Below, in pieces: positions 2,479-11,287 of a DNA stretch of 24,247 nt. A model generated the notes under the pieces. The model made no database searches. It was not told where the DNA came from and saw nothing but the letters and a program-made list of their open reading frames with translations. Source of the stretch: a virus (Duplodnaviria > Caudoviricetes); IMG/VR virus record IMGVR_UViG_3300042363_001587, positions 1-24,247 of that record. The stretch is one strand, 5' to 3'. Within the stretch, counting starts at the first letter, position 1. Each line of letters starts with the position of its first letter. The translations under genes were made by a program, and so were the position numbers.

Positions 2479-3033
2479 TCAGGTCTCCGGGGCGCCGAGC
2501 GCCCACGTATCTGTGGCGGTAAAGGGGATCACGAGCGCCAATGCGACTTGGCCGGATCCCGGAACGGGTTCCTGTGTCAGCAGCGACAGCTGCGACGGCA
2601 GGCTGAAGTACTGTCCTTCGAGCTGCAGGCCATCGGTGCGAAGCGTGCGGAACGCCGTGTTCAGGCAGGACCGAACCGCGCGCATGATGCGGTGTGCGGC
2701 GGCCAGAGCGCCCGCATTCTGTCCGTCCGTCGCAACGCCCACGAGGAGCACCACGATGGTGGCCGTGTCTTCCACCGGATCACTCGACATCGGCGATCCG
2801 GCGATCTGCAGCTCTTCACCGACGTTGATCTGCAGGGCCCAGAGATCGGGTATGACGCCTTCCACCGGTGCGGCTCGTGCGACCCAGTCTTCATCGACGG
2901 CGTTGAACACGGCCACTTCCGGCGGCTCGGCGTCGCTCTCACGCCGCGGGACGAGCACCCGCAACGCATTGACGCCGTTCTCCGAGTCCGCGAGGACCTC
3001 CGCCACCCAGCGAGGCAGGGCAGGGGCGATCAT
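2479..3033 (-). CDS. Putative tail terminator / neck protein (gpU position)
   Basis: 184 aa, ATGA-coupled to the upstream gene, immediately before the tail tube gene. Synteny only. Confidence 0.5.
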   Translation of the reverse strand: MIAPALPRWVAEVLADSENGVNALRVLVPRRESDAEPPEVAVFNAVDEDWVARAAPVEGVIPDLWALQINVGEELQIAGSPMSSDPVEDTATIVVLLVGVATDGQNAGALAAAHRIMRAVRSCLNTAFRTLRTDGLQLEGQYFSLPSQLSLLTQEPVPGSGQVALALVIPFTATDTWALGAPET

Positions 3034-3350
3034 GCGCGCTTGACCTGCAGGACGTAGAAGTCGAAGAGCGATGTCGGACGTGCGAGCGGTTGATCAATCA
3101 CGTACGACACACCGCGCGAGGGGATCGAGACCGTGAGGCCCATCACCGTGGCCAGCCCAGCAAACGCCCCGCGCTTCACCTTGAGTACAAGCCGCTGCGA
3201 CTGCGTCGTCTGCCCGGCGGTCTCCTGCTCGAGCACGACGTCGTCCAGCAGCCCACGCTTCACGGTGGGCGCTGCGGTGATCTCCAGATCCTCGCCGAAG
3301 TCGTCGAGGATCTGGTCTGCGTCACCAGGCTGAAACGGAGAAGGGCTCAC
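3030..3350 (-). CDS. Putative head-closure / head-tail joining protein (FII-like), ~106 aa
   Basis: Start re-called at GTG 3350, just after the capsid stop at 3365. MSPSPFQPGDADQILDDFGEDLEIT...YVIDQP is a small beta protein in the FII position. Confidence 0.6.
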   Translation of the reverse strand: MSPSPFQPGDADQILDDFGEDLEITAAPTVKRGLLDDVVLEQETAGQTTQSQRLVLKVKRGAFAGLATVMGLTVSIPSRGVSYVIDQPLARPTSLFDFYVLQVKRA

Positions 3351-3364
3351 GGTCTCGCGTCTGC

Positions 3365-4651
3365 TTAGGAGGCGTTCAGCACCTTGAGGACACCGCACGC
3401 GTTGACGCGGCGCGGTACCACGAGCGGAGCCGACTGCGACATGATCCAGCGCACTGACGGGTCCGGCGTCACCCACGACTTCGGGAAGATCTCCAGCGCC
3501 TGCATGCCGGCTTCTTCGTCCTGAATCGCGCCCTGATGTTGCACGCCTTCGATCGCACCGACGCAGAGGGCATGGCCGCCCGCCATCGTATTCGTTTCGG
3601 TGCCGTTCGCCGCCGTGAAGAAGCCGGTGTACAGCCAAATGCGATAGCCGCCGTACGCGCCCTTGTACTGCAACCCTTCGGCGACAGGCTCCATCGACAT
3701 GATTGTGCCGGCGTCGTACTTCGGCAGCTCGAGGTCTCGCTCGACTTTCTTGTTCTTGCGGAACGCCTTCCACGCAGCGGCATCAAGGATTACGTCAAGG
3801 ATCGGCGCGCCAGCGAGTTCGACTGTCGTCTCCGACAGATCGTCGAGGTTGTCCATCGGGTTCGAAGTGGTCTCCGACCAGCGGTTCCCACCTGTGAGGT
3901 TGTTGGCGACCGCGCTCGCCTCAAGCCGGGCACTCCGGCCGAAGTTCACCACGGTGCTCGGGTACTTGTCGCCGACGACTGTCACGCGGCCGCTGAACAG
4001 CGCTTCAAACGCCATCGCTTCCTTGCGGCGCATAATGCGGTCCATCTGATCCTGCAGCTCGTTCGCGAGCGCGAGATCGCGGCGCTGCTCCGGGCTCAGA
4101 CTGCCCCCGATCGCTTCGCCCATGCTGCGACGGAGCGCGCGGTCGGGCGTCCATCGAGCTTTCTCCTTGACGTAGGCCGGGGTGAAGGTCTCGACGCGCT
4201 GGCCGCGCATTTCCTTGACGGGTGCTTCGACCAGGGGATGCACGAACGGCGCAAGGAACCGCTGGCCTTCGTCGATGTCGAAGTGGATATACTCGTCCTG
4301 CGACTGCGTTGTGGTGCCGAAGAACGCATTCAGCAGGCCGGTGTTCGGCCGCTTGAGGTTTTCGAGAACGCTGAGCAGGGTGTTCGTGGTGAACGGCCCG
4401 ACGGACCCGACGAACAGCACGGGGGCGATCGGAAGCTCGGTGGCCACCGGCGCCAGCGCCGCCGGGGCAGTGAGGAGCGACAGCAGGCCGACGATGATCG
4501 CGAGGACGAGCAGCGGCACCAGCATCAGCAGCGAGAAAGCGCTGAAGAGGTTCGGGAGCGGCGCCGGATAGACCGGCATGGAGGCGCCGAGGGGCGCCCC
4601 GTTGAGAGTGGCGCCGAACACGCCGTGGATCTTGCGGAGCAGGATGCGCAT
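3365..4651 (-). CDS. Major capsid protein E (lambda gpE family) with N-terminal hydrophobic extension
   Basis: From residue ~86, FTTNTLL...LLNAFF, LAPFVHP, FTPAYVKEK, FPKSW and QSAPLVVP are recognisable gpE-family motifs. AGGAG precedes the ATG at 4651. Confidence 0.92.
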   Translation of the reverse strand: MRILLRKIHGVFGATLNGAPLGASMPVYPAPLPNLFSAFSLLMLVPLLVLAIIVGLLSLLTAPAALAPVATELPIAPVLFVGSVGPFTTNTLLSVLENLKRPNTGLLNAFFGTTTQSQDEYIHFDIDEGQRFLAPFVHPLVEAPVKEMRGQRVETFTPAYVKEKARWTPDRALRRSMGEAIGGSLSPEQRRDLALANELQDQMDRIMRRKEAMAFEALFSGRVTVVGDKYPSTVVNFGRSARLEASAVANNLTGGNRWSETTSNPMDNLDDLSETTVELAGAPILDVILDAAAWKAFRKNKKVERDLELPKYDAGTIMSMEPVAEGLQYKGAYGGYRIWLYTGFFTAANGTETNTMAGGHALCVGAIEGVQHQGAIQDEEAGMQALEIFPKSWVTPDPSVRWIMSQSAPLVVPRRVNACGVLKVLNAS

Positions 4652-4685
4652 GACTGAGTGATCTCCTGTGATGGCCTAGCGACGC

Positions 4686-5333
4686 TTACGCGTTGCCGAC
4701 GGGGATGAGGTGAATGCCGCGCGTGCGGAGCACGTCCCGCGCACCCGCGACCGTCAGGCCAGCCCCGATCGACAGCTGGTTTTCGCCGAACTCGCCGCGC
4801 TCATAGACGAGCACTTCGGTGGCCGCCGCCGTGGCATCCGCCGCCATCGCGACGATGCCGTGCGGACGGCTTGACCCGTCGGTCGCCGCGGCTGCGCAGC
4901 GGAGCACCGCGCCCGTTGCGGCGACGGTGATGGTGAACGCGTCACCGGCGACGAAGTCCGTCGCGCCGTCCGCGATGGTGAACACCACCGGGCCGGTCGC
5001 GGGCGTGCCGACATTCACGCGGCCGATGATCACGCCGTCCGGATCTTCAATCGCGAACGTGCCGCCGTTGGCGGCCGGTTCGATGCACACCGCGCGGTAA
5101 ACACCCGCGCGAGCATTGGTGCCGAGCGAGAGCGTGCCGATCGTGCCGTTGCCGGTGTTGCCGGCCACCGCCGCACCGACCGGCGTGGCGCTGAGCACGA
5201 GGCCGACGATGGCGCCCAGCGCCAGCGTGCCGGTGGCGAGGGTGAACTTTCGGGTTTCGACGGGCAGGTAGCCTGCAATCAGCGGAGCGCGCTGCTCCGT
5301 CGCGGAGCGGTACGAGGCGAGGGGACTGGTCAT
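4686..5333 (-). CDS. Head decoration protein (gpD-like) with inserted beta domain
   Basis: PLIAG, GAIVG, DGS..PHGI, VYERGEF and LRTRGIHL motifs; lies between protease and capsid; GGAG RBS. Confidence 0.85.
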   Translation of the reverse strand: MTSPLASYRSATEQRAPLIAGYLPVETRKFTLATGTLALGAIVGLVLSATPVGAAVAGNTGNGTIGTLSLGTNARAGVYRAVCIEPAANGGTFAIEDPDGVIIGRVNVGTPATGPVVFTIADGATDFVAGDAFTITVAATGAVLRCAAAATDGSSRPHGIVAMAADATAAATEVLVYERGEFGENQLSIGAGLTVAGARDVLRTRGIHLIPVGNA

Positions 5334-5357: not shown

Positions 5358-6047
5358 TTAGCCGCGCGGCTTGCGGGCAACTGCCCGCGGGTTGAACAGC
5401 GCCGTGGTGGCGAGGATGCGTTCTGCGTCGCTCAGCCGACCACCGGCGTCCGCGATCGCGCTTACGCCACCGTTCTGTGTGAGATCGGCTTCGTCGCCGG
5501 CCAGCTGGCTGAGGCCAGCCGCACGGACACCCGTTACCTTGCCAGTGAGAAGGCGATGCGCGGCGGCTTCGGGAGTGCAGCTCGGATCGTTGACCATGGT
5601 GATCAGCGACTCCAGCGACGCCTTCGAAGCCAGCGCCAGAATGCCGGAGATGCGCTTCCGCTCTGCGGTGCGTGCCGCCGTCAGCGCCTTCTGGAATGCC
5701 GACGGCTTTGCACGGCGGGCCGTGGTCTCCTCTTCGTCGGCCTGGTCTTCGCTGGCGGTATTCTCTTCATCGTCCGCCACGTCATCGCTGGCGTCGGCGT
5801 TCTCCTCATCAGCCGGCCCAGCCGTCGCGACCTCGAGCTCGTCTTCGGCGAGCCACGCATACGCGTCTTCGCCGTCGCCTACACGCACCTGATAGAACGA
5901 GCCGTCGCGCACCTCAACGACGGTGCCGATGTCTCCCTCGGCGATGCCAACATCGCGCGTGACGAGTGAACGCACTTCCGCGTTCGCCTCGAACGCAGCC
6001 GCTACTGCTGCGGCTCGCTTTGCGCCGATCCGCTTCAGTCGCGGCAT
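5358..6047 (-). CDS. Nested in-frame scaffold protein (Nu3-like), ~229 aa
   Basis: AAAGAGGAGCCC-ATG lies in frame inside the protease gene, after the catalytic domain. The product has an acidic linker and AERKRISGIL, as in lambda C/Nu3-type scaffolds. Confidence 0.65.
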   Translation of the reverse strand: MPRLKRIGAKRAAAVAAAFEANAEVRSLVTRDVGIAEGDIGTVVEVRDGSFYQVRVGDGEDAYAWLAEDELEVATAGPADEENADASDDVADDEENTASEDQADEEETTARRAKPSAFQKALTAARTAERKRISGILALASKASLESLITMVNDPSCTPEAAAHRLLTGKVTGVRAAGLSQLAGDEADLTQNGGVSAIADAGGRLSDAERILATTALFNPRAVARKPRG

Positions 6048-7004
6048 GGGCTCCTCTTTGGTTAGTGCGGCACGTGCCGCCGTGGTGTTTTCGCCGCTCT
6101 GATCATCTGCAGAGCTGCGCCAAGTGCCGCCCGCCAACTCGGCGTGCAGCGACTCGTAGGTGCCGACGCGATCCGCGAGACCGGCGCTTACCGCACGAGC
6201 GCCAACAAGGACCGCGCCTTGGCCAAACCGCGCGTCGACATCGTCGCGGGATACCCCGCGGTACTCCGCCACTGTGTTCAGAAACACATCGGCGATGTCA
6301 TCGACCATCTGCTGCCACGCACGTCGTCCTTCGTCATCGACCGGTGGACGATTCTTCTCCGGCGTCTGCGAGCTAGTGATGACGATCTCGCGCAGTCCGT
6401 AGTTCTCGAGGTACTTCGCGGTGTCCAGATACGCGACCTGTGCACCGAGACAGCCGACAATGGCTGTTTCTGCACAGACGATCTCGTCGCACGCGGACGC
6501 GAGCCAATAGGCGGCACTGCACGCGTCTCCCTCGACAAACGCCACGATTGGCTTCTGCCCTCGTGCGGCGCGCAGAATGCGTGCGAGCTCCTGGCATCCG
6601 TTGACGTGACCCCCGGGGGAGTCGAGCGTGAGGATCAGTGCCTTGATGCCGGGGTCACTCAACGCCTGTGTGATCTCGTTCGCGAGTACATCGTAGCTGT
6701 CGTACCACCACGACAAGAACGAGGAACTGGAGACGAGCGGGCCGTAGATTCGGATCTGCCCAACGCCGTTCCTCGTCGTGAGCCGAAACGAGTACTCGAC
6801 AGATTCTTCTGTCTCACCGGACACCGCTTCGGTCGTACGCGACACCGATTCCACCGGCGTCGTCATGAAGCGTTCTGCGTCTGCGAGTACGCGCTCAAGG
6901 CCAGCGGGAGAGATTCCCCATGGCTGGCCGAGCACCGCTCCTGCCACCTTCTGCCGCTGCACGCGGCGTGCTTGGCGACGTGGTGCTGTGCTATTCCTTG
7001 GCAT
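5358..7004 (-). CDS. S49 (SppA-like) prohead protease, lambda gpC-like, ~548 aa
   Basis: LDSPGG and ACSAAYWLASACDEI motifs. Start re-called at ATG 7004, which has a GAGGAG RBS and overlaps the portal end. Confidence 0.9.
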   Translation of the reverse strand: MPRNSTAPRRQARRVQRQKVAGAVLGQPWGISPAGLERVLADAERFMTTPVESVSRTTEAVSGETEESVEYSFRLTTRNGVGQIRIYGPLVSSSSFLSWWYDSYDVLANEITQALSDPGIKALILTLDSPGGHVNGCQELARILRAARGQKPIVAFVEGDACSAAYWLASACDEIVCAETAIVGCLGAQVAYLDTAKYLENYGLREIVITSSQTPEKNRPPVDDEGRRAWQQMVDDIADVFLNTVAEYRGVSRDDVDARFGQGAVLVGARAVSAGLADRVGTYESLHAELAGGTWRSSADDQSGENTTAARAALTKEEPMPRLKRIGAKRAAAVAAAFEANAEVRSLVTRDVGIAEGDIGTVVEVRDGSFYQVRVGDGEDAYAWLAEDELEVATAGPADEENADASDDVADDEENTASEDQADEEETTARRAKPSAFQKALTAARTAERKRISGILALASKASLESLITMVNDPSCTPEAAAHRLLTGKVTGVRAAGLSQLAGDEADLTQNGGVSAIADAGGRLSDAERILATTALFNPRAVARKPRG

Positions 7005-8589
7005 CGGTCTCCTCGGTTGTCCCTTCCGGCGGCGTTTCGTTGTCGTCTGTCGGGACCGTGGCCCCGCGGCCAGCCGTGATGATCTCCGTCGGCGCGAGTC
7101 CATCCGCCACACGGCGATTCTTCTCGCGCACGAGCTGCTCGTGCACAGCCTCCCACGACTGCCCTGTGAGCTGCGGCGCCTCCAACGCTCGAGTAGAGAA
7201 CCCGGCGTCGACGCGTAGAATCGCGGCGTTCACTTCCTTGAGCGGATCGAGCTGCGTTACAGTCGGGCCGGCCCACATCGCACCGAGGTAAGCCATGCGC
7301 GTCATCGGATCTTCGAGGAAGCCCGGCGCCACGAGAAGACCGCGCTGCACGGCTTCCCAGATGATCCACTCGTAGATCGGCTGACAGAACGTCTCAACGA
7401 GCCAGTCTTGCTGCGCATCGAATGCGCGCCACGCTTCCTGCAATGCGGCGCGAGACGCCGAATAGGACGAGTTGAATTGCTTCAGGAGCAGCTCGCGCGG
7501 GATGCCGAGCGCGACGCCCATGAACGTCGAAATGGAGCTCACGAAGGGATCGAACTGCGCGTTCGGCCGCCCGGGGTTCGCGATGCTGATGTCGTCACCC
7601 GCCGGCAGTTCAACGACCGCACCTTGTCCGAGCTTCACATTGTCGCCGGCGCCGATCGGCAGCGTGTCGGCGTCCTCAAGATCCGCCAGACTCTTGCCGT
7701 CTTCGACGCTACCGGTGCGCTTGATGAATACGGTGAAGAACGAGGCGATCACCGCTGCAGCAAGCTCGGAGTCAGTGAAGCGATCCAGCTGCTTCAGCTG
7801 ACGAATGACCGGTGCGAGATACGGCACACCACGCGTCTGATTCACACGCTGCTGCTCGATGATGTGCAACACCATCGGCAGGCCGCTGCGCGACCCATAG
7901 GCCGGCACGAAGTCGTACTTCGGGAATCCCTGCCCGAAGCCGGCTTCGCTTGGATGGTGACTCGCGATGTAGAAGCCGGTGGCCGCGCCGTACTGATCCA
8001 GAACGATCCCGTCGCGGAGCGTTGGGGTGTTCATGTGCCCCGTCGGATTGCCGACACGATCCGCCTCAAGCAGCTGAATCTTCAGCGCGAGGACATCACC
8101 CGCCCGAGGTACATATCGGCGCAAGGCGAACGCATCGCCGCCAGAGAGGACGGAGCGGAGGGCCAGTCGCTGCATCTGCGGGAAGGAGTTCCTTCCGGCG
8201 ACGTCGAATCGCTTGGAGTAGGCAACCGCCTTTACGATGCGCATCGCATCGCGCTGCCATGCAGACGCTTCCTGCTCTGTCAGGCCGAGATAGTCTCGGT
8301 CGATCTGCGGCGTGGGGAGGAGGCCTCCCCCGACCACGTTGTCCAGCCGAGTGAGAAGAGCGCCCGTCGCCAAGGGCGCATTGCGCTCGAGGTCTCGGGT
8401 GCGTGCCCTGAGCGCTGGCAGGTCACCGAGGATGTCTTGATCCGGGGATCCCAACCCGGGCAGCCACGCCATCAGCTCGCGGACATCAGTGCGGGCGCCC
8501 TCGTAGCCACCGCGGCCGAAGAATGCCCGTGCTTTCGGCTTCTTCGCCTGCTGCAGGCGAGGCAGTGCAGCGCGGGTGTGGCGCTTCAC
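6991..8589 (-). CDS. Portal protein, lambda gpB family, ~532 aa
   Basis: YEGA, LRARTRDLERN, QTRGVP.LAP, YSASRA and LDPLKE motifs. The GTG at 8589 overlaps the gpW stop. Confidence 0.95.
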   Translation of the reverse strand: MKRHTRAALPRLQQAKKPKARAFFGRGGYEGARTDVRELMAWLPGLGSPDQDILGDLPALRARTRDLERNAPLATGALLTRLDNVVGGGLLPTPQIDRDYLGLTEQEASAWQRDAMRIVKAVAYSKRFDVAGRNSFPQMQRLALRSVLSGGDAFALRRYVPRAGDVLALKIQLLEADRVGNPTGHMNTPTLRDGIVLDQYGAATGFYIASHHPSEAGFGQGFPKYDFVPAYGSRSGLPMVLHIIEQQRVNQTRGVPYLAPVIRQLKQLDRFTDSELAAAVIASFFTVFIKRTGSVEDGKSLADLEDADTLPIGAGDNVKLGQGAVVELPAGDDISIANPGRPNAQFDPFVSSISTFMGVALGIPRELLLKQFNSSYSASRAALQEAWRAFDAQQDWLVETFCQPIYEWIIWEAVQRGLLVAPGFLEDPMTRMAYLGAMWAGPTVTQLDPLKEVNAAILRVDAGFSTRALEAPQLTGQSWEAVHEQLVREKNRRVADGLAPTEIITAGRGATVPTDDNETPPEGTTEETDAKE

Positions 8590-8816
8590 CGGTGGACCAC
8601 GCCGTAAATGCGAGTGCGCGTGCCGCGAACCAGGCGAGCCAGCTCGTCGGCGTAGTCCTTCTCCAGCTCGCGAAGGCTCTTGAGATCCGCACGAGTCATC
8701 GCGCGACCTTCGGCGGAATACGCCTGGCCACCGGAGACGATGCGGCGGATGGCATCTCGAACGGACGCAACGTCCGTTTCGAGTTCTGCGATGCGGGCTG
8801 CGCGAGTAGTGGTCAC
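8586..8816 (-). CDS. Head completion protein, gpW-like
   Basis: 76 aa with GGQAYSAEGRAMTRADLKSL; directly upstream of portal. Confidence 0.8.
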   Translation of the reverse strand: MTTTRAARIAELETDVASVRDAIRRIVSGGQAYSAEGRAMTRADLKSLRELEKDYADELARLVRGTRTRIYGVVHR

Positions 8817-8859
8817 ACGCGCACACTAGGAACGCAACCAGACTTACGCCTTCTGACTG

Positions 8860-8969: not shown

Positions 8970-9323
8970 GCTCACGACTCGCGGACGTACGCGCCGCCCC
9001 GCTCCAGAGAGCTGCGAATCATCCACGGAACTGTCCGAATCGTCACTTCGGGCACACTCATGGCGCGAGAGGGGAACCCTGAGAAGCGCAGGGCCACCGT
9101 GCTGCGCGGTGCGGCAGAGGTATCCCTGCTCGACGAGACTAGTGAGTGCCCGCGAGACGGCAGCTCGATCAAGGTCCAAGTGCTGCTCGATGACCAGCAG
9201 TTTCAGGACACGCGCTTCGACGACGTCGAGATACTCGATGGCCGCCCGAAAGACCTGCAGCTCGCGCGGGCTCACCTTCGTATCGCTCAGAATCTGACGA
9301 AAGATCGGGATCTCGAACTGCAT
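8955..9323 (-). CDS. Winged-helix DNA-binding protein, 122 aa, with terminase-like C-terminal tail
   Basis: The ATG at 9323 overlaps the terminase TGA (TGATG). IEQHLDLDRAAVSRALTSLVEQGYL is an HTH pattern. The protein ends RPRVVSRGVL. Confidence 0.75.
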   Translation of the reverse strand: MQFEIPIFRQILSDTKVSPRELQVFRAAIEYLDVVEARVLKLLVIEQHLDLDRAAVSRALTSLVEQGYLCRTAQHGGPALLRVPLSRHECARSDDSDSSVDDSQLSGAGRRVRPRVVSRGVL

Positions 9324-11287
9324 CAGTACACGCCCTTCGAGACGACACGAGGGCGGGTGCGTGAGCGAGGCGGTGCTTGTGACGCGGTGACGGCATGAGG
9401 AGGACTGGTCAGCACACTGACCACCTCTGCCGATTCCGCCGCTGCGAGTTTTGCGAGATCCTGCAGAACACGGCTGCCTAGCGAGACTAGAGCCGCATAC
9501 GCGTACACCGTGGTGTCTAGTACTTCGTTGGCAAGATCCTTCGCCTTCTTTCGCCATACGCGAATCGGGCGCCGATTCCGGTACTCTGTCTTCAGCTCCT
9601 CTGCCGTGAGCTGCAGGAAGAACGCGGCATCGAGCCCCGCCGGGAAGTTCACGAATTCGGGGCCGCGCTCCTTTACGATCAGCCGTCCGAAGAACATGTC
9701 CTTTACCGTGTCGATGCCGACGATTCGGGAGCGGATGTTCTTGCCGCTCCGACGTCGCGTCTCCTTCGGTGGATCTGCGATCACCGGTCGCCCGCGGCCT
9801 TCCTTACCCTGAATCGGGATCACCTTCGCGCCGTTTGGGCCCACGAAGCGTCGTGCGAAGCGATGCACGTGTCCGGTCTGGTACTTCGCATCGATGCACG
9901 TGGCCGCGATATAGCGAGATCTTCCCGCCTCGTCGGTGAAGCCTTGCTGTAGGTACGCGCTGACCTCGCGCCACGTCTTCTCGAGCGCTGGGTCGCCTTC
10001 GATGATCTTCCAATCGATGACCCATGACTGCTCGCCGGCGCCGAATCCCCAGACGGTGAGGTGCACGCTGTCACCTTGCACGTCGCCGCCACAGGTGAGA
10101 AGACGGACGCCCTTCGGGACCTGAGCGCGGTACACCTCTGCACGCTGCTGCAGGAAGCTCGAGCTGACCGCCGAAGACTTCTCAGCATAAGGCAGTCCGC
10201 AGATGTTGTTGACGAAGGTGCGCATCTTCGCCGGCGAGCGCACCGCTCTGGAGAAGCGCTGGGCGATACGCGTCCACGAGATCAGCGGCGAGATGAACGC
10301 GGGAATGTGAAATCCCTCAGCAAGCCGACCGGCATGACGCGGCCGCCATTCACCTTTCGCGAGCATTCTGCTCTTCTCCCACTCGCTGATCAGGCATGCG
10401 CATTCCTCGCAGACGTACGACACCGTACCGGGTACCACCTCGCCAGCGGAGTCCTTGTCCCAAACAAAACGTGCGTCGCCGCTGCTGTTGTCGTCTCCAT
10501 CCTCCATACCGTCTCGCCAGCGCAGCACCTGCTCGTGCTCGCAGTGAGGGCAGGGCATGTACCAGTCGTTCCATGTCGATCGAGTCAGCTCGTCGTAGAT
10601 GCGAGAAGAGCCGGACACCGTCGGCGTTGATTCGAAGTACTCCTTGTAGTCCCAGAACGTCTCACCACGCGAGCGCGCGAGTTCGATGGGATCACCATCC
10701 TCGCTGAGCTCTGCGATGATGTTGTCCACCTCTGAGAACCAGATGCGCGCTGCAGAGATCGATCGGAGGTCCGACGAGGAGCGGGCCGTCAGGAGGTCCA
10801 GCGTACCGTTGGGGAACTCCTTGTGCGCGATCGCGTCATTTGAGTCACGCAGGCCAGACCGATCGAACAGTCGTGCCAGCCGGGGTGTCTCATCGATCAT
10901 GGGATCGAGACGCGTCATGGACCACCTGCGGAGCAGCTTCTCTGTAGGCCATACCGACAGCATCGGCGCCGGCGCCTCGTCCATGGTCCAGCCCACCCAG
11001 TTCTCGCCGATGGTGGTACCGGCAACCTGGGCGCCCTTCATCACAACAACGGTTTGAATCCGCGGGTCTGTAAGCGCGTCCATGATCCCCTTCAGGTAGG
11101 GGATGCGGTCGTTCCGGAACCGTCCGCCCTCGGAGCTGCTCGAGCTGGGCAGCACGCGATGCTCTTCAGCCCACGCCGCGATTGAGAGCGGCGTGCGCGG
11201 TGCGTATGCCGTCGCCGCCTCACGCTGAACATCGGCGAGCAGCTCCGAGACGCTGGTCTCGTAGGACAGTGCCGGAAGAGCCGTCAT
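9323..11287 (-). CDS. Terminase large subunit, lambda gpA family
   Basis: 654 aa with VMKGAQVAGT (Walker A), ESTPT, MPCPHC...CEEC, GGDVQ and NEVLD motifs. Confidence 0.96.
   Translation of the reverse strand: MTALPALSYETSVSELLADVQREAATAYAPRTPLSIAAWAEEHRVLPSSSSSEGGRFRNDRIPYLKGIMDALTDPRIQTVVVMKGAQVAGTTIGENWVGWTMDEAPAPMLSVWPTEKLLRRWSMTRLDPMIDETPRLARLFDRSGLRDSNDAIAHKEFPNGTLDLLTARSSSDLRSISAARIWFSEVDNIIAELSEDGDPIELARSRGETFWDYKEYFESTPTVSGSSRIYDELTRSTWNDWYMPCPHCEHEQVLRWRDGMEDGDDNSSGDARFVWDKDSAGEVVPGTVSYVCEECACLISEWEKSRMLAKGEWRPRHAGRLAEGFHIPAFISPLISWTRIAQRFSRAVRSPAKMRTFVNNICGLPYAEKSSAVSSSFLQQRAEVYRAQVPKGVRLLTCGGDVQGDSVHLTVWGFGAGEQSWVIDWKIIEGDPALEKTWREVSAYLQQGFTDEAGRSRYIAATCIDAKYQTGHVHRFARRFVGPNGAKVIPIQGKEGRGRPVIADPPKETRRRSGKNIRSRIVGIDTVKDMFFGRLIVKERGPEFVNFPAGLDAAFFLQLTAEELKTEYRNRRPIRVWRKKAKDLANEVLDTTVYAYAALVSLGSRVLQDLAKLAAAESAEVVSVLTSPPHAVTASQAPPRSRTRPRVVSKGVY

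Follow-up and report, generated by a model that had tools for sequence, protein, structure and literature searches.

A conserved, signal-anchor-like leader in front of the gpE-type major capsid protein of a lambda-type phage head module

The major capsid protein gpE of phage lambda is encoded in a head module together with the portal protein B, the S49 protease C and the decoration protein D. Other tailed phages make the capsid protein with an N-terminal extension in front of the N-arm, as in the delta domain of HK97 gp5 and the propeptide of T4 gp23, where a head protease is encoded nearby and the extension is a hydrophilic scaffolding domain. With regard to membranes, excerpts of two papers describe that the T4 head initiates at the inner membrane via a contact between portal and YidC and detaches after gp21 cleavage (PMC9026906; PMC3185693), and an excerpt of the latter that the M13 capsid protein pVIII, prior to assembly, resides in the membrane as a transmembrane helix (PMC3185693). 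Here we describe an 87-residue hydrophobic leader on a gpE-type capsid protein of an uncultured freshwater phage, encoded on the minus strand of a 24,247-base IMG/VR virus record (IMGVR_UViG_3300042363_001587; CheckV completeness estimate, 40%), the whole of which is called the window below. Relative loci carry L-numbers and relative proteins P-numbers, and G001 is a 46.7-kb relative. The sequence evidence supports a translated, selected and signal-anchor-like leader, and we infer membrane tethering and cleavage of the capsid precursor.

The window protein shares with lambda gpE the full family profile PF03864 (residues 88-428) and the module of portal, S49 protease and decoration protein, but differs from it by the extra hydrophobic leader. 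With HK97 gp5 and T4 gp23 it shares an N-terminal extension before the N-arm and a head protease nearby, and removal of the leader would be expected here too, as relatives start at the junction between leader and capsid domain. On the other hand, the window leader, with its basic tip and hydrophobic core of 26 residues, is unlike those hydrophilic propeptides. The order of n-region, h-region and small residues and the charge asymmetry are shared with Sec signals and signal-anchors, although the hydrophobic run is longer than in a usual cleaved signal. Compared with M13, whose virions are extruded through the envelope, the head of a tailed phage is filled with DNA in the cytoplasm, and the partner proteins here have no signal. 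T4 is the nearest tailed-phage precedent for membrane-linked head assembly: its prohead passes a step at the cytoplasmic face of the membrane that is ended by proteolysis, according to an excerpt of PMC9026906. However, the portal and not the capsid protein contacts the membrane in T4, and there is no signal-like leader.

The capsid gene and its parts are as follows.

3365..4651, minus strand: capsid gene for a 428-amino-acid lambda gpE-type precursor, stop codon included (list of open reading frames (ORFs); Pfam PF03864; PHROG 29, major head protein)
4663..4667, minus strand: Shine-Dalgarno-like (SD-like) AGGAG, 11 nucleotides before the ATG at 4651 (read from the sequence; same layout in L004 and L054)
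4610..4651, minus strand: leader residues 1-14, basic N-motif MRILLRKIHGVFGA, predicted helix; kept in long-form leaders
4550..4609, minus strand: leader residues 15-34, variable Gly/Ala/Pro linker; in-frame indels in P0129 and P0131, missing from short forms
4472..4549, minus strand: leader residues 35-60, hydrophobic core LFSAFSLLMLVPLLVLAIIVGLLSLL, predicted transmembrane segment or signal h-region; best 19-residue Kyte-Doolittle value (KD19) 2.98, the maximum of the window
4427..4471, minus strand: leader residues 61-75, Ala/Pro-rich, with APA, ALA and the first acidic residue, E72 (read from the sequence)
4391..4426, minus strand: leader residues 76-87, junction APVLFVGSVGPF (P-x-L-x-x-G-[TSN]-x-[DGE]-x-F), proposed processing site; conserved, with a nonsynonymous to synonymous rate ratio (dN/dS) of 0.11 over residues 61-87 (one sequence pair)
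4418..4420, minus strand: GTG at residue 78, the sole NTG codon near the domain start and an unlikely start; no SD-like motif in the 20 nucleotides upstream
3368..4390, minus strand: gpE (HK97-fold family) capsid domain, residues 88-428; Pfam profile positions 1-328 of 329, dN/dS 0.03 against L004 (the same pair)

The leader occupies residues 1-87, starts with MRILLRK and has no Asp, Glu, Lys, Arg or His over residues 10-71. Its best KD19 (residues 41-60) stands against values of 1.97 or less in the other 18 scored ORFs of the window; APA lies at residues 62-64 and ALA at 65-67. The sequence-only reading, which had described a basic tip, an uncharged run from 10 to 71, a hydrophobic stretch at 35-60 and A-x-A motifs, is thus borne out by both sequence and hydropathy. 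An AlphaFold2 (AF2) model from a 15-row alignment, used for helix positions only at its mean predicted local distance difference test (pLDDT) score of 47, places helices at residues 2-16 (low confidence), 35-42 and 44-60. Each of the 20 leaders examined has a hydrophobic core and an N-flank of +2 to +5, and in 19 of them the net charge of the 30 residues behind the core is zero or negative. A positive N-flank with a non-positive C-flank characterises signal peptides and type II signal-anchors (the positive-inside rule); in the window the positive residues before the core are R2, R6 and K7, as in a Sec n-region. Sec h-regions normally span about 7-15 residues and longer cores act as membrane anchors. 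The window core, 26 residues within a 37-residue uncharged run, goes beyond that length, and the cores of 15-18 residues in short-form relatives would fit it.

Further features help to place the leader among known classes. APA followed by A at residues 62-65 is compatible with signal peptidase I; ALA is followed by Pro, which is disfavoured at such a site, and motifs of this kind are frequent in Ala-rich sequence. A lipobox, L-[AS]-[GA]-C, closes the h-region of lipoprotein signals; the window leader has no Cys and so no lipobox. Lipobox-like LSAC and LTAC are confined to P0007 and L054 and, if used, would make the capsid precursor a lipoprotein there. MRILLRK has no adjacent arginines of the Tat type, and the uncharged run and the KD19 of 2.98 are at odds with the hydrophilic character of a delta domain. 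Judged from motifs and composition, the window leader is neither a Tat nor a lipoprotein signal, and it lacks the composition of a delta domain of the HK97 type. It resembles a signal-anchor, and the Sec signal-peptide class fails in the window on core length.

Searches with the leader alone found little outside the family. Against proteins of near length only P0001 matched (E 1e-32) among 1513 candidates, and no stand-alone homologue was present among 99 shorter candidates. Pfam returned only a trivial Phospholamban helix (E 0.2), four leaders gave nothing below E 0.017 against PHROGs, and the ESM Atlas gave no usable feature match, with structure neighbours all at a TM-score below 0.5. The junction motif and the N-motif were absent from other head proteins, and from the rest of the window, G001, L064 and L054.

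Translation of the leader as part of the capsid protein is supported by composition, gene packing, loss of the canonical start, SD-like motifs and in-frame variation, which all agree on this point. In the leader frame, codon positions 1/2/3 have a guanine-plus-cytosine (GC) content of 0.71/0.46/0.94, compared with 0.63/0.45/0.82 for the body. From the stop of the upstream gpD-like gene it is 34 nucleotides to the ATG at 4651 and 295 nucleotides to the domain start, and the distance from gpD stop to domain start in leaderless loci has a median of 27 nucleotides (15-112, n=58). All leaderless loci except L059 (63 of 64) have an ATG at a distance of 2-8 codons ahead of the domain; L002, L003, L004 and L064 have no ATG, GTG or TTG in this interval. 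For L054 the ungapped script mapping is unreliable, and its junction, read directly, holds ATG and GTG codons with no SD-like motif.

The sequence-only reading had named AGGAG as the clearest ribosome binding site and put it at 4651; the motif is indeed there, but it occupies 4667-4663, 11 nucleotides upstream of the start. In front of other genes in this phage, GGAG-type motifs start at -7 to -16, a range that includes the spacing of the leader AGGAG. SD-like motifs also precede the leader starts of relatives, namely AGGAG in L004, GGAG in L054, AGGTAGG in L064 and AAAGGAGA in L072/L075; in the last two, the internal ATG two codons ahead of the domain has none. The same reading had noted that the GTG at residue 78 lacks a binding site, which holds for the preceding 20 nucleotides. 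A start near residues 78-85 would leave the leader untranslated; no usable one is found there, and the canonical ATG is lost in window-type genes and in L064.

The leader frame is kept down to about 41% identity. In P0129 and P0131, which belong to the cluster of the window protein (at least 90% identity), residues 14-25 vary by in-frame indels. This linker behind the N-motif is an in-frame indel hot spot, where relatives read GVFGGT, GVFGAVFGGVFGGT or GVFGATLNGAPLGAS, which suggests slippage on a GVFG repeat. In a Nei-Gojobori comparison with L004 (93% identical), residues 1-13 show no nonsynonymous and one synonymous change, and dN/dS is 1.25 over residues 14-34, 0.56 over 35-60, 0.11 over 61-87 and 0.03 over the body (88-428), all from one sequence pair with few changes.

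The part behind the leader is a whole gpE domain, with 87 extra residues in front of it. Pfam Phage_cap_E (PF03864) aligns residues 88-423 to profile positions 1-328 of 329 with 195.5 bits (cut-off 22.9), and the PHROG major head protein match begins at residue 85. A tblastn search of 50,697 phage records gave 439 matching records of cultured or deposited phages, none of which covered more than 80% of the query or extended over the leader, and all 30 rows listed start at 85-87. Thus the similarity to gpE begins close to residue 86, as the sequence-only reading had noted, and its statement that lambda gpE has no such leader agrees with these records. An exhaustive HMMER search with the body only gave 1664 proteins at E<=0.001. 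One gpE of this kind, the 517-amino-acid P0268, is lambda-like with an internal tandem duplication of about 180 residues that is unrelated to the leader and probably an assembly or cloning artefact.

In 16 of the homologues listed (120 of 146 matches from 8000 candidates scored), 45-100 residues precede the domain and include a hydrophobic core in every case (KD19 1.87-2.95); for the remaining 104 the stretch is 4-10 residues long. Four of the best 150 representatives of 50%-identity clusters carry the leader (P0003, P0015, P0136, P0221), and one other has a 26-residue non-hydrophobic extension. Two forms occur. The long form reads M(R/K)ILLRKIxGxFGA, then a variable linker and the core; its N-motif is retained in the window gene, P0001-4, P0012, P0016, P0136 and L054, and becomes MSVQLxKIKGVLGA in P0007/8/10. 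The short form reads MRTALKxL, passes directly into a 15-18-residue core and resembles an ordinary Sec signal peptide. The forms alternate among close sisters (P0012 has the long and P0013 the short form, and P0005/6 sit among long forms), which would fit repeated truncation or exchange of the leader. At the junction of 17 main-clade leaders, Pro stands at -10 in 8, Leu at -8 in 12 and Gly at -5 in 13, followed by T, N or S, and leaderless relatives begin with M-(P/A)-D-x-F exactly at this junction.

L072/L075 (31% identity) and P0108 are further lineages with a basic, hydrophobic leader, which ends P-F-M-L-F-G in L072/L075. In L072:29-3555 the leader-bearing gpE gene lies beside DUF6582, a gpD-like gene and a Mu Gp36 homologue, and tblastn found no gpC or S49 match in the stretch of this Mu-like head module that was examined; lambda-type and Mu-type head genes seem to be combined here as a mosaic. 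A 123-row tree was built on the body only, with L075 and without L072. It joins 16 leader rows and the leaderless P0014 and P0017 in one clade with 100% support in the Shimodaira-Hasegawa-like approximate likelihood ratio test (SH-aLRT), and places P0108 and L075 elsewhere, next to leaderless sisters. Its well-supported branches force at least 3 leader changes, and none of 500 label shuffles was as low. A 39-row tree (LG+G4) forces 4 changes, and the approximately unbiased (AU) test rejects a single leader clade with p 1.8e-40 for a group that was named after the first tree was known. Leader-bearing genes occupy a minimum of three to four distinct positions in the family tree. A metagenome scan added no new full-length leader gene of the main clade, and a genome-contig search with a single capsid protein found no relative.

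The clade that conserves the leader has links to Gemmatimonas genomes. The cluster of at least 90% identity that holds the window protein includes P0127, an NCBI 'major capsid protein [Gemmatimonas sp.]' on a 133-kb contig, and the 56%-identical short-leader relative L064 lies in a Gemmatimonadaceae metagenome-assembled genome. The NCBI annotation of P0127 has 409 amino acids and starts at the GTG of codon 11; it loses the MRILLRKIHG motif and keeps the hydrophobic core, and public start-site calls for this capsid family are inconsistent. L002, L003 and L054 come from records with a provirus classification. Near-identical DNA occurs in lake-water and plankton metagenome runs of several studies; none of the 19 runs listed is an RNA run. 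Contigs of four DNA runs differ from the window by 0-3 letters over 4300-4760, without indels; the 3 differences come from contigs of depth 4.5-6.1 and were not used.

On the minus strand the genes follow the order large terminase, portal, S49 protease, gpD-like protein, gpE-like protein and head-tail attachment protein (Pfam, PHROG), a lambda-type neighbourhood with portal, S49 protease and decoration protein upstream of the capsid gene. The neighbours are as follows.

9323-11287, minus strand: large terminase, part of the lambda-type head module
6991..8826, minus strand: lambda-family portal protein without leader; Pfam Phage_portal_2, 305.7 bits; maximum KD19 1.56
5358..7112, minus strand: S49 head maturation protease (gpC-like) with a long C-terminal part and no hydrophobic segment; Peptidase_S49, 87.1 bits (cut-off 24.9); PHROG 53; maximum KD19 1.66
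4686..5333, minus strand: gpD-like head decoration protein of 215 amino acids without leader; PHROG 49 head decoration, E 1.2e-10
3030-3368, minus strand: head-tail attachment protein of the same head module

The assignment of the neighbouring head protease to S49, made before any search, agrees with its Peptidase_S49 score. Its longest ORF has an Arg-rich beginning and shares about 120 nucleotides with the end of the portal gene; translation probably starts farther downstream. The C-terminal part of the protease contains a very acidic stretch, ADEENADASDDVADDEENTASEDQADEEE. The decoration protein scores 25.2 bits with Pfam HDPD, under the cut-off of 29.1, and its residues 58-195 match profile positions 45-101 (of 116) in pieces. 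Its homologues in L064 (212 amino acids) and L072 (220 amino acids) are comparably long, and the window protein looks like a gpD type with a large insertion. Outside the window, G001 28979-29641 (L079:8979-9641, plus strand) holds a 220-residue ORF that opens with a basic tip and then a hydrophobic helix (KD19 2.06 at residue 7); its product resembles the VanY D-Ala-D-Ala carboxypeptidase weakly and below cut-off (E 0.0057). It may be a signal-anchored (SAR-type) endolysin, with the next ORF of 202 residues possibly in the same lysis cassette.

To explain the leader, we tentatively favour, at somewhat less than even confidence, a membrane-targeting propeptide that tethers the unassembled capsid protein and is removed at the conserved junction. 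The basic N-flank and hydrophobic core would act as a signal-anchor for the newly made protein, and unassembled subunits or capsomers would be tethered at the cytoplasmic face of the inner membrane, or at Sec/YidC, with the capsid domain remaining in the cytoplasm. Cleavage at the junction, by the phage S49 head protease or an enzyme of the host, would precede or accompany head maturation and yield a mature N-terminus like that of the leaderless relatives. The layout of charges and core is kept across separate lineages despite sequence drift, and therefore selection probably acts on recognition for membrane targeting. Export of the capsid domain is unlikely, because portal, S49 protease and decoration protein have no leader and the head is filled from the cytoplasm. 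Similarly, the leader is unlikely to stay on the mature protein, because leaderless relatives start at the junction and the N-arm of lambda has a role at the decoration-protein site, where, according to an excerpt of PMC5701804, the gpE N-arm strand, the gpD N-terminus and the E-loop form a four-stranded sheet.

Several points weigh against such a tethered precursor. The charge pattern predicts an N-in/C-out orientation, which would place the capsid domain in the periplasm, so that the tether needs a stalled or non-canonical insertion. The N-terminus of the HK97 fold faces the procapsid interior, and a closed shell could not be tethered through its approximately 415 N-termini since they point inward; only subunits or capsomers could be. 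This geometry counts against the membrane-tethered whole procapsids that the sequence-only reading had inferred. P0014 and P0017 stand inside the leader clade without a leader, and therefore the leader would be dispensable for assembly. The ratio of 0.11 at the junction comes from the single pair described above, and neither the portal nor the protease nor the decoration protein of the window contains the junction motif. The S49 family of the head protease, which the sequence-only reading had brought in as an argument for leader cleavage, turned out not to be specific: by tblastn, 47 leaderless relatives also have an S49 gpC-like gene as a neighbour, and the leader-bearing L072 has no gpC match. 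The gpC-like frames span 555-623 residues in leader-bearing loci against 400-700 in leaderless ones. As for other proteases, no rhomboid, M50 or S26 protease was present among 20 ORFs of G001 that were scanned (chosen from 50 kept).

Alternatively, the leader may be a genuine Sec-type signal or, in some relatives, a lipoprotein-type one, inserted N-in/C-out and cut by the host signal peptidase, so that the leader or an exported share acts in the envelope, for example as a membrane-active peptide that is made in step with the capsid protein and times lysis or exclusion. The n-h-c layout and the charge asymmetry of all 20 leaders agree with this, as do the short forms, in which small-x-small motifs (AQAHA, ASARA, GHA) follow uncharged cores of 15-18 residues, the lipobox-like L-(S/T)-A-C at the core end of P0007 and L054:3001-3273 (both long leaders), and APA then A after the window core. 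We nevertheless consider it unlikely. An exported capsid domain could not assemble with a portal, S49 protease/scaffold and gpD-like protein that have no leader, and the 37-residue uncharged run of the window exceeds typical cleaved signals. A-x-A motifs are expected by chance in Ala-rich proteins of high GC, and the conserved junction lies 15-30 residues past any such site. This explanation corresponds to the separate functional peptide that the sequence-only reading had offered as its second possibility, and no stand-alone homologue of the leader was present among the 99 shorter candidates.

It is quite unlikely that the leader works without any membrane, as a propeptide like the delta domain, whose helices would bundle under the capsomers or block assembly until the S49 protease digests it as in HK97 gp5. 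Its position directly before the N-arm is that of the HK97 delta domain, and its length is similar (87 versus about 103 residues). The mature HK97 capsid protein starts at Ser104, according to an excerpt of PMC5701804. The head protease gene is two genes upstream, and the junction is conserved where other parts of the leader drift. The composition, however, is unlike that of known delta domains, which are hydrophilic coiled coils, and a core with KD19 of 2.98 would meet the signal recognition particle or aggregate. Moreover, the conserved positive N-flank would be left without a role, and the gpC-like gene matches that of leaderless relatives in length, so the scaffold-encoding part has not been replaced.

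The structural protein might also be made mostly from the GTG at residue 78 or another non-ATG codon, with the long form minor or regulatory, and we regard this as distinctly improbable. Such a GTG does exist, the hydrophobic junctions of relatives always hold Leu, Val and Met codons, and L072/L075 retain an ATG two codons before the domain. On the other hand, none of those codons follows an SD-like motif, yet the leader start does in every lineage; the canonical ATG is lost as described, and the junction is conserved as protein (dN/dS 0.11). Finally, a functionless chance extension or gene-calling artefact is very improbable and already contradicted: at 65% GC long open frames are frequent, in several leaderless loci the frame stays open over 68-129 codons ahead of the start, and antisense shadow ORFs overlap the capsid gene, but those upstream frames are Arg/Pro-rich and have no start codon, the antisense ORFs match no Pfam family, and the leader recurs in separate lineages with a third-position GC of 0.94, its own SD-like motif, a conserved N-motif and junction, and in-frame indels.

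The assembly of tailed-phage heads is a textbook case of cytoplasmic self-assembly, with which a conserved membrane-targeting signal on the capsid protein fits poorly, above all in a lambda-like module. In open-access PubMed Central (PMC) papers and bioRxiv preprints we found no description of a tailed-phage capsid protein with a transmembrane or signal-like leader; PMC10276861, from its excerpt, is unrelated to a capsid leader. In a broader form, which we think possible but doubtful, several unrelated tailed-phage lineages would make the capsid protein as a membrane-targeted precursor, whose subunits are gathered at the inner membrane and released at the junction. For annotation, the leader matters already, as the NCBI record of a close relative starts at codon 11 and is labelled merely 'major capsid protein'. 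If the membrane-targeted precursor is real, it would bring a new control over where and when capsid subunits become available, and the head protease or a host peptidase would gain a new kind of substrate. It would also add a membrane-dependent step to head assembly that is missing from the classical models of lambda, HK97 and P22.

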